This document shows, one piece after another, positions 1,841-57,130 of a stretch of DNA of 64,000 nt. The notes under the pieces are model-generated. The model did no database searches and had not been told where the DNA came from. It worked only from the letters and a program-made list of their open reading frames with translations. The translations under genes and the position numbers were made by a program. The stretch spans positions 118,668,001 to 118,732,000 of the forward strand of contig OZ024745.1 in the NCBI GenBank assembly GCA_964016885.1. Reading direction: 5' to 3'. Each line of letters opens with the position of its first letter. The stretch's first letter is position 1. Source of the stretch: Eledone cirrhosa (Eukaryota).

Positions 1841-2019
1841 AAAAAAATGACACATATATACATACACACACAACACGTGCCTTTATGTAAGATCTATGGC
1901 CTTTATAAACATTAAGAGTGAAAGCAGCGATTCTTTGCTTAAACTTTAATCTGCTATTTTAATAAATATTTGCTCGTCAGGTTTTTTATATATCTTTATT
2001 TATATATATATATATATTT

Positions 2020-2084
2020 TATTTCATTATACATATTTCAAGGACACCAAGTTAAATTATGATGTACTTTCATCAGATAAAATA
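2020..2084 (-). ncRNA. Type I hammerhead ribozyme motif (intact core)
   Basis: Minus strand reads UAUUUUAU-CUGAUGA-AAGUACAUCA...UGGUGUCCUU-GAAA-UAUGUA-UA|AUGAAAUA. Stem I is 8 bp, stem II is 9/10 paired, and the cleavage triplet is AUA. Confidence 0.75.
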
Positions 2085-2220
2085 TAATATAGATCAGTTT
2101 TATAAATAAATATTGACATACCCATAAAAAATGCAACCATTACTGTTGGAAGCTTCCAACAATAATGGTTGCATTTTTTAAGGGTATGTCAATATTTATT
2201 TATAAAACCGATCTATCTTA

Positions 2221-2285
2221 TATATTATCTGATGAAAGCACACCATAATTTAACTTGGTGTCCTTGAAATATGTATAATGAAATA
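2221..2285 (+). ncRNA. Type I hammerhead ribozyme motif (intact core)
   Basis: ctgatga at 2229-2235; stem II aagcacacca/tggtgtcctt; gaaa at 2266-2269; tatgta-ta with predicted cut after 2277; stem I tatattat/atgaaata (7/8). Confidence 0.75.
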
Positions 2286-2394
2286 AATATGGTATTGTTA
2301 ATATCGTATTTTTACTCCAAATATTTGTTGAGTGCTTTATATCAGTTATAAAAATATTTGCTTGTTGTATCCCAACAATTTAAATAGAACTTTT

Positions 2395-2575
2395 ACATAT
2401 ATATATATATATATATATATATATATATATATACACATATATATACAAACACACACACACATATATACATATATACATACATACACAAATATACACAAAC
2501 ACACATACACATACACACATGTGTACCTTCATATATATATATAGACACACACATACATACATACACACACACACC
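2395..2575. repeat. (TA)n/(CA)n compound microsatellite
   Basis: Directly visible. Confidence 0.95.
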
Positions 2576-3299
2576 TATGTAACGTTTCTGCTGTAGATGT
2601 ACCACCTAAGTTTTGTCTGTCAATCTATATTTACAATACCGAGTTCATCTAATCCATATTTACACCGTCAACCAGTTATACCCAACAAACTAGCTAACCA
2701 GTCAATAATTTTGGGACAGGCTGTGTCTATTTAATAAACATTTATAAGCTGCAGTAACTATGCATATCTGCAAGATGTTCCTACTCAAATCGTGAAAATA
2801 TAATTACATGGATTTATATCAGTATATTAAGCTATAAAGCAGATAAAAACAACAAGCAACATTTGAATGGAATTTAACCTTAATGTTGGGCAGATAGGAT
2901 CAGTTACACTAATATTATGTTACATTGGTTTTAAACTTTTGGTGGGGAGTTAGACATAATATAATCTCTGACAAAAAACTTTATTTGCATTATCCATGAT
3001 ACAATTGCAAGTGAAGCTACTCTACTCATCTTTGTTTTAAGTGATTGTTGTACAGAAATTTAGAACATGCAAATGGTTATCAGAGATGAGTTCCAACAAC
3101 CAATCTGATGACAGTTTTACACAATAACAAACAAAAAAGATTATCTATATTTATATAAAAGAGAGAGGAGTAGTTTGACTACCTCATACTACTCCTCTCT
3201 CTTTATGTCTGTTGCTTGTGTGAATGTATGTGTGTGTAAAAGGAAGGAAGGGGATGGTGAAAAACTATAGCAAAATAGCAGCTGGTGGTTCATTTGTTA

Positions 3300-3730
3300 T
3301 TCTGTGTATGTGTTTGTGTGAATGTGCCTCTGTGTGAATGTGTGTGTGTGAATGTGTGTTTGTGTGAATGTATGTTTGTGTGAATGTGTGTCTGTGTGAA
3401 TGTGTGTCAGTGTGAATGTGTGTTTGTGTGAATGTATGTCTGTGTGAATGTATGTTTGTCATCATCATCATCATCATCGTTTAACGTCCATCTTCCAAGC
3501 TAGCATGGGTTAGACTGTGTCTGTGTGAATGTATGTGTGTGTGTGTGTGAATGTATATGTGTGTTTGTGTGAATGTCTGTCTGTGTAAATGTGTGTGTGC
3601 GTGTGAATGTATGCCTGTGAGTGTGTATTTTAGTAAGTGTGTGTGTTTGCATGTTTATATTTATATACTCATACATATAAATGTATGCATATGCACATAC
3701 ACACACATGCATACACATATACACATACGT
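3300..3730. repeat. TG-rich microsatellite with gtgtgaat subunits
   Basis: Directly visible; interrupted by a SINE tail at ~3459-3515. Confidence 0.9.
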
Positions 3731-53922: not shown

Positions 53923-54030
53923 TAACCTTTTCTTACCATATTTCTTATAAAATACAATTCTTGTGTTTAATATGGAGTTTATTTTATATATATATATAAA
54001 ATCAAGAATTTGGAGGGATTTAGTATTATA

Positions 54031-54460
54031 ATTAACTGTTTCTACTTTAGGCACAAGGCCAGCAAATACCCAGTGCATTACTGGTACTTTATTTTATCGA
54101 CCCCGTAAGGATGAAAGGCAAAGTCAACCTCGGCGGGATTTTAACTCAGATCGTAAAGGGACGTAACTATGCTGGAAAGCATGGCGTCCAAACTTAATAA
54201 TGGTTTCTGATTTAGGCACAAGGCCAACAATTTTGGGAGAGGGGAAAGTCTCCCAAAATTGTTGGCCTTGTGCCTAAATCAGAAACCATTATTAAGTTTG
54301 GACGCCATGCTTTCCAGCATAGTTACGTCCCTTTACGATCTGAGTTCAAATCCCGCCGAGGTTGACTTTGCCTTTCATCCTTACGGGGTCGATAAAATAA
54401 AGTACCAGTAATGCACTGGGTAATTGCTGGTCTTGTGCCTAAAAGTAGAAACAATTATTA
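54031..54460. repeat. Near-perfect foldback made of Meta-like SINE sequence
   Basis: Arms at 54031-54240 and 54249-54460, with an 8-nt spacer ggggaaag. Confidence 0.92.
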
Positions 54461-55228
54461 AGTTGGAACACGACTTAAATATTATGATAGAAGATAATAT
54501 AACTAATCGCTTTAAAACAAACAGCATAGTATAGTAGAACCAGGAGCGGATTGGTGCCACTAAGACAATCTCCACAATCTAATGGCGCCTGTGTGCCTAT
54601 AATGTGTGTGTGTGTGATATATATATATATATATATATATATATATATATATATACATGTAGGAGGTGAGTTTTATTGTAGTACAATGCAGATATCGGAT
54701 AAGAAGCACTCTACAGTTTGTAGGACTGGAGTATACATAATATATAAGAACAAAAGATGGTTAAAGGAGTTCCATGTATTTTATTATGCGCATTTCAAAA
54801 TATATATATATAGAGAGAGAGAGAGAGAGAGAGAGAGAGAGAGAGAGAGAGAGAGAGAGAGAGAGAGCATAAAACAAGGATATTCAAGACGAGTTTACAG
54901 CAGAAGTATGTAATGTAGAAATATATCTGAGTAAAACATGAAATTGATTCATACCTTAAGTTCACACGGCATGTCGATTTTCACACAAAATTGCAAAATT
55001 CCTATTCTATTTGATTCACACATGAATCAAGTACAATAGGAATATTGCAATTTTGCTTTCAAAAGTTCACTTCCACTCTTAACACTCTCATTCTTTTTTT
55101 TTTAATTCGACTGAATTAATGTCACATGATTGAGATTACCTCAGTCAATTATTTCCAACATACGACACTGGTTATATCAACTCTTTTAGAGGCAGTGATT
55201 GTCATTGAAAAATTAATGATCTTAAATA

Positions 55229-55602
55229 TTTGGCATAAGGCCAGCAATTACCCTAGTGCATTATTGGTGCTTTATTTTATCGCCCCCGTAAGAATGAAAA
55301 GCAAAGTTAACCTCGGAGGGATTTGAACTCAGACCATAATGGGCCATAACTATGCTACAAAGCATGGTGTCTGACGCTCTACCGATACTGCCAATCCACT
55401 GCCTTAGATCCAAAATTAATTGTTTCTACTTTAGGCACAAGGCCAGCAACTACCCAGTGCCTCACTGGTACTTTATTTTATCGACCCCGTAAGGATGAAA
55501 GGCAAAGTCAACCTCGGCGGGATTTGAACTCAGATCGTAAAGGGACGTAACTATGCTAGAAAGCATGGCGTCCGACCCTCTACCGATACTGCCAATCCAC
55601 CA
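55229..55602 (-). mobile_element. Two tandem Meta-like SINEs
   Basis: 55229-55405 and 55420-55602. Confidence 0.85.
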
Positions 55603-56023
55603 ATGATCTTAAAACATATTTATTAAATATATGAAATAATTTCAATCAACTTTCAACGAAGTTCTTGGCATAGTAGATGGCTCGTTTTACCGATGTATTA
55701 GGTGATGACCGCGATGGTGCTTGGTTATTGCAGCGCCTTAGTCACGCTATCATCCGCGGAGATGTTGCAAAGTAGTTGGTTTGCCTCAAACATTATTAAA
55801 GGGGAAACTCTAGTGCCCCTTGTGGCGTGTGGTTCAGCGTGTAGGTTTTCTCTCGACCTTTTTTCTGCTTTTATTATTTCCTCCCTCGAAGGGCTGTGGA
55901 TTGGCAGTATTGGTAGTATTTTTTTTTTAACCTAGACCATCCCTGATTAAGCCAACCGTGACCATCACGTCTTATCGTATATCTTAGATTGCCTTATATA
56001 ATTTGTCCTTGCTTTTTAAGATA

Positions 56024-56180
56024 CAGGTAAAATTCCGTTATAACGAATACCATTATAACGAATTTTTCAATACAACGAAATCTTTTTCAATCCCCGGCCG
56101 CACACTTGATGTGTTAAGTCGATCTCATTATAACGAATTTTTTTATACCTCGTGAATTTTGTTATAACGAAATTTCACTG
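56024..56180. mobile_element. pogo/Tigger-like MITE
   Basis: ta-caggtaaaattccgttataacgaa ... ttgttataacgaaatttcactg-ta, with internal ttataacgaa subrepeats. Confidence 0.75.
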
Positions 56181-56786
56181 TAATAATTATTTGAGGGAGA
56201 CTTGACTGCTATTTCTAACAGATCAAGCGACCACGTAAGAGTTTCCTCGTGGACTTGAAGACGAGTTGAAGGATGAAGTGATTGTTTTTATCCCCCGCAG
56301 TGATAAAACAACACTGACTAGAAAACAATAAAGAGAAATATTGAGTTGAAGGAAGGGGTGATAGAGTTTACACATTTTCTTTCGTAAGGAGCAATGGAAG
56401 TGAGAGTATATGGGTAAAAGGGAAGGTGGAAGGCTTTGTTTATTATTTATGTTTGTTCGTCTGCTGCTTATATTATCATGTCTAGTCAGCTTGCCTCATC
56501 GCTATCAAGTGTAATTTTGTCGGTCGGTCTGATTCAATCATTAAGCCGGGCCACTCCATAACGTGATGGTAACAAGATCACGTTTTTATTCCAACTCATT
56601 GATTAGATAAGTAACTAGCTGGCTGCTTTTAAACACATACCAACATTCGAACCAATAAGAGGACCTCTATATAGTTGCTTGGCCTGTTAGAAATAACAGC
56701 CACATATCCCTCAAATCACACTCTACTCCTAAAAAAGGGACACATTGTATCTAAATATATATATATATATATATATATATATATGC

Positions 56787-57130
56787 AGAGGTTATATTTA
56801 ATTTGTTGGGATTCAACAAGCTTAACATTTTTTTATAACTGATATAAAGCACTGAACAAGTTAGTGGAGTAAATAATATCTTTTCAACTTTTTGGACACT
56901 CATATGAGTGAGTATCACTCATAACTTTGTATTACCCTCAATAAAATATTATCTCCACTATCCAGGAAGCTCCAACCGTTAAGGTTGTTTTTTTTTTCCG
57001 GGTATGTCACTATTTATTTATAAAACAAATCTGTATTTTATCTGATGAAAGGGCACCATAATTTGCCTTGGTTGCCCTTAAAATATATATAATAAAATAA
57101 ATATGGTTTTATAAATATAGTTTCCATTTA
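56787..57130. mobile_element. Second copy of the 2017-2390 hammerhead element family, with an internal inversion
   Basis: 56787-56880 is the reverse complement of ~2300-2390, and 56965-57120 matches ~2148-2305 directly. Flanked by (TA)n. Confidence 0.75.
57034..57099 (+). ncRNA. Hammerhead motif with a single core mutation (GAAA to AAAA)
   Basis: tattttat-ctgatga (57042-57048)-aagggcacca/tggttgccctt-aaaa-tatata-ta|ataaaata. Confidence 0.7.

Follow-up and report, generated by a model that had tools for sequence, protein, structure and literature searches.

Type I hammerhead ribozymes accompany two kinds of described mobile element, the Penelope-like elements (PLEs) and the metazoan retrozymes that lack long terminal repeats (LTRs), called non-LTR retrozymes, and it is with these that we compare here a stretch of 64,000 nucleotides (nt) of the genome of Eledone cirrhosa (assembly GCA_964016885.1, contig OZ024745.1, positions 118,668,001 to 118,732,000 of the forward strand), hereafter the window, where fourteen such motifs are found. 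The hammerheads carried by the pseudo-LTRs (pLTRs) of PLEs (PMC4209133) are, as in the window, of type I, with a short self-complementary stem III and many families per genome; they too are mostly single motifs coming from truncated PLEs, with opposite-strand pairs 100-700 bp apart. The present motifs differ from them in having stem II inserts of up to about 110 nt, in showing the G10.1-C11.1 pair in a minority of cases, and in their number, estimated at about 1.9x10^5 per genome against some 2,000-9,000 there, counted with another descriptor.

Among PLEs, the closest are those of the Hydra clade, which have a C-terminal endonuclease (EN+; PMC8557442). The likeness extends to the RW(K/R) and DKT motifs, the CxCX5C linker, the CxxC and CxH motifs of the endonuclease (EN), the pLTR hammerhead, insertion into (TA)n, the presence of an inverted 5′-truncated copy and a tail often found at one end. 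It is a likeness of motifs, and there are differences: the units are of 4.1-4.6 kb with long 3′ untranslated regions (UTRs) against generally less than 3 kb, the tails measure 88 nt (family F2) and 118 nt (family F9) against 30-40 bp for Naiads (PMC8557442), and one young, abundant family is met here. Families F9 and F50 recall the metazoan non-LTR retrozymes (PMC7229834; bioRxiv 10.64898/2026.07.22.740005), being non-coding, with a GC content of 34-39%, a single type I hammerhead in each unit, monomers as well as tandems, and coexistence with PLEs. Their units of 543 and 872 nt stand at the long end of the published ranges (150-450 bp in PMC7229834, 51-972 bp in the preprint) and their copies, known here from DNA, are mostly truncated or inverted, unlike long arrays; the accessible text of these two papers yielded no analysis of TA targets or of the pairing of ends. 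Finally, Poseidon, a PLE of Anolis studied in vitro (PMC11167929), resembles the present case in that two internal start sites of the reverse transcriptase (RT), 3′ of the hammerhead, define an optional tail, while an AT-rich target has both strands cut and extended, with a predicted protein dimer. No difference of start site between strands was observed in that study, whereas the two arms differ in 32 of 33 insertions here, in either orientation.

We understand the motifs of the window, with a confidence that leaves limited room for doubt, as type I hammerheads situated near the 3′ ends of many PLE families, F9 and F50 being non-LTR retrozymes that would borrow PLE proteins. The association of hammerheads with PLEs is already described; it is the density estimate and a rule in the pairing of ends that go beyond routine.

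Hammerheads in the window

The window belongs to an assembly of 2,995,841,428 bases in 1796 contigs, and is AT-rich as well as rich in simple repeats. We used a type I descriptor requiring a stem I of at least 4 bp, CUGANGA, stem II, GAAA, stem III and UH. It returns exactly the five sites that a preliminary description, made from the letters of the window, had called intact, while 100 block-wise dinucleotide shuffles of the window (1-kb blocks) gave 0.03 matches on average and one at most. A revised descriptor admits a bulged nucleotide after the core, a kind of motif missed by the first version (from 18 to 25 matches in a sample of 400 kb, composed of forty 10-kb stretches chosen blind, at round coordinates, on 22 contigs); it finds the same five sites, with a shuffle mean of 0.01. 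All fourteen motifs of the preliminary description are present at the coordinates it gave. When hammerheads of other loci, some of them collected by means of the window's families, were assembled into a BLAST library, it matched these 14 sites and no others; the motifs regarded as decayed have relatives with intact cores. Topology is of type I in every motif, so that the plant-type LTR retrozyme, with its type III hammerheads in LTRs, was discarded as a model; the matches of the descriptor have the CUGANGA and GAAA core and a UH cleavage site. Rfam gave 193 matches in the window, and the 150 listed (E<=1) include no hammerhead, being TA/TG-repeat look-alikes of microRNA models.

Could such motifs be accidents of AT-rich, repeat-rich DNA, or parts of short or long interspersed elements (SINEs, LINEs) or of miniature inverted-repeat transposable elements (MITEs)? 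A few singleton descriptor matches do look accidental (six were dropped), and TA runs are very common, at 2 per kb. This explanation has practically no chance of being correct: shuffle rates of 0.01-0.4 face 5 and 25 observed matches, and conservation and covariation across entire families refute chance, while 5′ truncation to various lengths, inverted arms of unequal size and the presence of partial tandems are as in PLEs rather than SINEs or MITEs.

The 14 motifs amount to 11 insertions, distributed in 10 dispersed repeat families with the anatomy of PLEs:

F2, 2018..2396: left arm 2018-2152 (-) and right arm 2153-2396 (+) of a head-to-head inverted, 5′-truncated 3′ end assigned to a Hydra-type PLE of about 4.1 kb; hammerheads at 2020-2084 (-) and 2221-2285 (+), the right arm having the long (tail) end, with TA runs on both sides.
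F7.6, 7490..7752 (+): inverted tail arm at about 7490-7575 (-) and main arm with an intact hammerhead, 7612-7704, its short end in (TA)n.
F8.0, 7768..8200 (-): 5′-truncated, with a decayed hammerhead at 7978-8061 (TAAA for GAAA).
F9, 8687..9350 (+): 1.2 copies of a 543-nt non-coding unit, a retrozyme-like partial tandem with (TA)n at both ends; hammerheads at 8687-8757 (upstream, truncated) and 9219-9300 (intact), cleavage being predicted after 8751 and 9294.
F17, 17218..17629: left arm (-) with tail and right arm (+) with short end of an inverted pLTR insertion assigned to a Hydra-type PLE; half motifs at 17384-17403 and 17555-17574, each the 3′ half of a hammerhead in which stem II has an insert of about 110 nt.
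F25, 25018..25173 (+): 5′-truncated copy between TA runs; decayed hammerhead at 25060-25132 (U16.1 changed).
F33, 32990..33125 (-): 5′-truncated, at the large TA satellite's edge; the hammerhead, at 33063-33122, is decayed.
F50, 49984..50457 (+): 5′-truncated copy of an older non-coding unit of about 872 nt; intact hammerhead at 50281-50370 with a palindromic stem III.
F50.9, 50873..50999 (-): decayed hammerhead at 50913-50959; the same motif lies about 200 nt after the stop of an open reading frame (ORF) in locus L105.
F54, 54736..54799 (-): 5′ truncation at a TA run has spared the 3′ half of a hammerhead, with stem III ATGCGCAT; a relative of F2.
F2 subfamily (F57), 56785..57133: inverted long-end arm at about 56785-56880 (-) and main arm (+) with a decayed hammerhead at 57034-57099 (TAAA for GAAA), its short end in (TA)n.

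Several of the motifs are related to one another, in contrast to the early impression that, apart from the pair at 2 and 57 kb, the elements shared no obvious sequence. The motifs at 2020 and 2221 are the two arms of a single inverted insertion (an inverted repeat of 135 nt, 95% identical), and so are those at 17384 and 17555 (125 nt, 98%); 8687 is the 5′-truncated upstream copy of the unit to which 9219 belongs; and F54, full hammerheads of which occur in loci L038, L043, L051, L199 and L204, aligns with F2. The 3′ end of F8.0 shares the TA run 7753-7767 with F7.6, while that of F50 was cut off by another repeat. We gave up the idea of F7.6 as an element of fixed length, for its left part is an inverted tail.

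The motifs, called minimal in the preliminary description, are not small: their stem II has inserts of 30-62 nt in the five intact cores and of about 110 nt in the 17-kb family. A self-complementary stem III, attributed to most of them, withstands examination if G-U pairs are allowed; perfect Watson-Crick palindromes occur in just two of the five intact cores, the other three needing a G-U pair, and among the 25 matches of the sample the corresponding figures are 18 with G-U and 11 without. That the elements border, and may land in, (TA)n is well borne out: a (TA)5 run lies within 212 nt on the 3′ side of 12 of the 14 motifs, the exceptions being 50913 (332 nt) and 8687 (TA on the 5′ side), and in the sample 19 of 25 matches have (TA)6 on the 3′ side, at most 300 nt past the cleavage site, against 25% of random positions (p 1.6e-7). 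In the TA satellite, 6.9 kb long (26837-33749), the interruptions of the (+) strand are nearly all C, giving a GC skew of -1 over 28-32 kb, and the right end of the satellite encloses the F33 stub.

Families that end protein-coding elements

Judged from sequence, three of the families, F2, F17 and F50.9, are the 3′ ends of protein-coding PLEs. Locus L133 contains two identical F2 hammerheads (at 5253 and 9389), 4136 nt apart, which flank broken RT and EN frames, and the F2 insertion of the window matches both of its pLTRs; the two arms of the 57-kb insertion were likewise delimited by BLAST against L133. In L207, two full F17 hammerheads are placed in repeats of 382 nt (98.7% identical) around an intact ORF of 834 amino acids (aa); the insertion at 17.2-17.6 kb of the window is 81-90% identical to these repeats. 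The motifs read by eye in this ORF (RRVRWRAY, a RWR variant, HSDKTG, CNCRNKANC, CRLC and CNH) agree with the description of the Hydra clade: RWK, DKT, CxCX5C, CxxC and CxH, no CCHH, and a (TA)n target. The protein resembles the RT of a Pfam-confirmed ORF with RT and GIY-YIG domains in L124 (E 1e-8), and its neighbours in the Atlas carry HTH_animal, GIY-YIG and RVT_1, which is a lead, the Pfam shares being 24-38% for the top three. The ORF of F2 is broken, and its EN part is 40% identical to that of F17. For F50.9 the motif follows, by about 200 nt, the stop of a GIY-YIG ORF in L105 (E 6.8e-5, above the Pfam cut-off), GIY-YIG being the one PLE domain seen. The partial tandem (pLTR), the inverted 5′-truncated copy and the optional tail are all present in F2 and F17.

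Across the genome, the RT region of the 834-aa ORF has 44,451 first-look candidates, of which 150 were scored; these are all 95-100% identical in amino acids, with the frame open in four of them. Because of this uniformity, we take the F17-type Hydra family to be young. Intact 834-aa frames lie at L207:2210-4711 (-) and L208:1206-3707 (+). Other PLE clades, with RT and C-terminal GIY-YIG, occur at L124:1412-3094 (-), L131:7778-8950 (+) and L136:5003-7836 (-); as a small sample was enough to reveal them, several PLE clades coexist.

These observations bear on the preliminary description, which had considered the elements to be non-autonomous ribozyme mini-elements as a whole. Within the window no PLE ORF adjoins any motif, and F9 and F50 are non-coding, as that explanation demands; it is nevertheless most improbable as a general one and is refuted for three families out of ten, since F2/F57, F17 and F50.9 run into PLE ORFs in other copies. 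PLEs with matching pLTRs, which it proposed to look for, are found for F2 in L133 and for F17 in L207, and the PLE/retrozyme identity that it put forward is upheld by these hammerhead-ORF-hammerhead loci and by the tandem unit of F9. Short non-coding tandem units could be shown for F9 and F50 only, and the elements were said to be invisible to ORF-based annotation, which cannot be generally true: curation of transposable elements seeded by ORFs would reach F2/F57, F17 and F50.9.

Short non-coding tandem units

F9 and F50 are short non-coding tandem units akin to non-LTR retrozymes, the first clearly so, the second probably. Eight of the 30 F9 loci show a period of 538-544 nt, and L060 has four hammerheads in succession, spaced by 542-544 nt. 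Its longest ORF starting with methionine codes for 31 aa, and the monomer folds strongly (-126 kcal/mol, z -5.3). The best 40 of its 2300 candidates are 97-100% identical, and related subfamilies exist at 78-91%, one with a period of 522 nt in L099. The case of F50 is weaker: its unit of about 872 nt, with a longest methionine ORF of 71 aa, was seen in one partial tandem (L028), both cores of which are damaged.

Two insertion ends and their pairing

Copies of F9 end either 81 or 199 nt past the predicted cleavage site, that is at two sites 118 nt apart, and copies of F2 at two sites separated by 88 nt. By a strict pattern, the ends abut TA or CA repeats in 42 of 46 and 37 of 46 cases. An inverted arm is present in 22 of the 30 F9 loci. 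Scoring the ends by BLAST, we found both outer ends on the two sites in 17 of these, and all 17 associate one short with one long end (nine and eight for the two orders); in the five others the inverted arm leaves the locus (two) or ends elsewhere (three). F2 behaves similarly, with one short and one long end in 15 of 16 scorable loci and a single long-long case (Fisher p 9e-4). Together, 32 of 33 inverted insertions combine a short and a long end (p 8e-9 against an even split). The scored loci are top BLAST matches, a choice that biases the end of the main arm, not that of the inverted arm. Within the window, the insertions at 7.5, 17.4 and 57 kb obey the same rule, and that at 2 kb has a long end and an atypically short one.

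It is known that the tail is often present at one end only (PMC8557442), and, for Poseidon, that it is tied to two RT start sites, both strands being extended with no difference observed between them (PMC11167929). A statement of the pairing rule itself was not found in the literature covered, older subscription papers on the structure of Penelope lying outside it. The rule suggests coordinated priming at two sites, and we may picture the whole process as follows. A tandem locus would be transcribed. The PLE endonuclease would cut (TA)n, and the RT would copy the RNA starting from tens to about 200 nt beyond the hammerhead on its 3′ side, at two fixed internal sites, each of them serving one strand of the target; the two ends and the TA flanks are there to be seen, and the enzymology is borrowed from PMC11167929. 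Both complementary DNAs would stop early, then be joined, to leave the 5′-truncated, partly tandem or head-to-head inverted copies with short and long ends that populate the genome. As copying would start close to the hammerhead, even the shortest stubs would retain all or half of it, hence the density. The self-complementary stem III should allow two hammerheads to cleave as a dimer, with release of RNA of unit length which may circularise.

A bolder proposal, to which we give slightly less than an even chance, brings together the densest set of hammerheads so far counted (about 60 passing the descriptor and at least 135 family segments per Mb), a young 543-nt unit possibly moving via circular RNA, and a strict short/long rule arising from a dimeric PLE enzyme that primes both strands in one coordinated event. 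If this were true, coordinated two-site priming would account for the tail and the inverted repeats that mark all PLEs and have long lacked an explanation. In the in vitro system of PMC11167929 the rule becomes a sharp prediction, and young families with thousands of candidate copies make the mechanism of PLE integration readable from the genome.

Conservation of the fold and predicted ribozyme activity

Covariation in the stems, the absence of which would have counted against the preliminary description, is found. We aligned 21 motifs of F2 and F54 by sequence alone: 16 of 20 de-duplicated F2 rows collected by BLAST, the re-cut 57-kb copy of the window, and four of five F54 rows collected by the descriptor, three broken or deleted F2 rows being excluded. 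Paired cells make up 93.8% of this alignment, and both sides have changed in 10 of its 20 pairs (controls: 0 of 500 for shuffles, 36-54% for slid alignments), with double changes in eight of nine pairs of stem II, one of eight of stem I and one of three of stem III. Five motifs from F9 subfamilies keep all 14 pairs, three of which change on both sides. Cofolding gives the geometry of a dimeric hammerhead for F9 and F50.

Set against this are several facts that weaken the interpretation we favour. The structure used for covariation was drawn from the same sequences, and the copies are related, so that the counts are inflated and amount to support rather than proof. For F2 and F7.6, cofolding gave no dimeric hammerhead. 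No Pfam match above threshold was obtained with the 834-aa ORF, and no autonomous partner of F9 was found, the six PLE-bearing loci tried giving no match. The G10.1-C11.1 pair, highly conserved in minimal hammerheads (PMC4209133), is in the minority: C11.1 occurs in just 7 of the 25 matches of the sample and in one of the five intact cores of the window (50281, where it faces A or, if a bulge is admitted, G). At 10.1-11.1, beside the core, F9 and F50 are mismatched, because of which their activity may be low. In vitro, the hammerhead was dispensable for insertion, and RNA-seq showed no ends at the cleavage site (PMC11167929); according to the literature, PLE hammerheads cleave weakly even as dimers. 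An unpaired nucleotide after position 9 combined with G10.1-C11.1 is not a general feature of the set, being seen in F50.9 and one other small family.

Much of this would suit a different account, which departs from ours in the RNA steps alone: all families would be 3′ stubs or deletion derivatives of autonomous PLEs, formed from linear tandem transcripts, the hammerhead being a passenger or a protein-binding fold, with no circular RNA even for F9 and F50. Three families do prove to be PLE ends, many of the 10.1-11.1 pairs met here are non-canonical, insertion in vitro was unimpaired when the hammerhead was mutated (PMC11167929), and Naiads form tandem and inverted structures without hammerheads (PMC8557442). 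We deem this account unlikely, though it deserves to be taken seriously: subfamilies with differences of about 20-25% nevertheless retain the core and the pairing of the stems, which points to selection on the fold; the unit of the F9 subfamilies stays short and non-coding (522 nt in L099), and its monomer folds strongly; and in coral, mussel and axolotl, comparable units have been shown to give circles (PMC7229834). As stem II and the 10.1-11.1 pair vary widely in nature, the motifs constitute a ready test set for what hammerheads tolerate.

Families and abundance in the genome

The 400-kb sample contains 25 descriptor matches in 16 of its 40 stretches (shuffle mean 0.37), a density of 62 per Mb, which extrapolates to about 1.9x10^5 in the genome (bootstrap 1.0-2.8x10^5). 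Counting segments of the library families, damaged ones included, gives 54 in 22 of the 40 stretches, hence about 4x10^5 (2.5-5.8x10^5), a lower bound; this count fell from 83 to 54 when six doubtful library entries were dropped and overlap with a core half was required. The window, with five intact motifs and 14 in total in 64 kb, is typical to slightly rich, and the expectation of many families and of a very large genome-wide number is vindicated by its ten families and by this estimate. With about one hammerhead-type motif per 16 kb, many of the introns and UTRs of this animal probably contain one, and effects on transcripts are possible if even a fraction of the motifs cleave.

By comparison, up to 120,000 hammerheads are given for axolotl and about 5,000 for mussel (PMC7229834), the axolotl genome being of 28 Gb, and minimal motifs number about 2,000 in Schistosoma, 4,000 in coelacanth and 9,000 in Xenopus (PMC4209133). 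The present estimate exceeds these counts, in a comparison that is rough since descriptors differ. A search by title or abstract found no paper on such a hammerhead/PLE system in cephalopods. The supplements of PMC8557442 include octopus PLEs; 'octopus' is absent from the main text of PMC7229834, the supplement of which may list molluscan counts. An annotation of octopus repeats (PMC13282606) has no hammerheads, ribozymes or retrozymes in its main text, and, if the genomes are related, such families may there sit under SINE or unknown labels.

Seven sites of the window were searched genome-wide, with 40 candidates scored for each, so that first-look counts are not copy numbers: 1763 candidates for 50281, 2300 for 9219, 339 for 2221, 3530 for 7612, 2017 for 25060, 1155 for 7978 and 1992 for 33063. 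The remaining sites have homologues in fetched loci, and F50.9 has 10 BLAST matches in the sample. The F50 candidates are mostly 73-82% identical; the 20 F7.6 loci fetched, window included, are at 86-100%. Aligned copies pass the descriptor in 27 of 30 cases for F9, 26 of 30 for F2, 10 of 20 for F25, 4 of 15 for F33, 4 of 20 for F7.6, and 3 of 30 for F50, a low figure because extraction cut its long stem II inserts. F8.0 passes in 0 of 15, its stem I being of 3 bp or broken, with CTGANGA kept in all 15. For F7.6, F8.0, F25 and F33, neither a true tandem unit nor an ORF was met in the 15-20 loci per family, from a search that favoured short stubs.

In about 1 Mb of loci, the choice of which was mostly guided by these families, the descriptor has 192 matches in 27 clusters; 13 of the clusters are singletons, and some are probably chance matches. 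A frequent small hammerhead family (15 matches, in L093, L105, L131 and others) is absent from the window; it has a U-U pair beside the core and a 6-nt palindromic stem III, with a tandem-like duplication in L036. Another, at L049:180-306, L050:741-865 and L054:730-851, has a stem II insert of about 90 nt, with compensatory differences between copies. In the flanks of loci L031-L090, different hammerhead families are often neighbours within one TA tract, forming nested clusters. Locus L209 (C2:310208300-310210000) carries three identical 173-nt copies of an F33 stub with flanking host DNA. We discarded it as a retrozyme array, the unit including host flank and all three cores being broken, in favour of a later local duplication; a duplication of this sort could pass as a retrozyme in a pipeline looking for tandem repeats with a motif, were the core intact.

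Other features of the window

At 54046-54443, a head-to-head inverted repeat with 195-nt arms, 98% complementary, carries no hammerhead; it is an abundant short repeat, present at many other sites of the window. Beside a TA run, 23915-24475 (-) contains a frame of 186 aa with no Pfam match, which we take to resemble the C-terminus of an RTE-type LINE, and similar fragments exist in several loci. Directly after another TA run, 61984-62041 (+) gives a weak tRNA match (29.4 bits, equal to the gathering score), with which a SINE, or else a tRNA-bearing unit of the PLE type, may begin. Finally, two long minisatellites, at 35972-38004 and 11744-12716, possess open frames (a threonine-rich one of 714 aa on the (-) strand, and one of 341 aa on the (+) strand with a unit of 84 nt), and could be repeat-coding exons or plain satellites.

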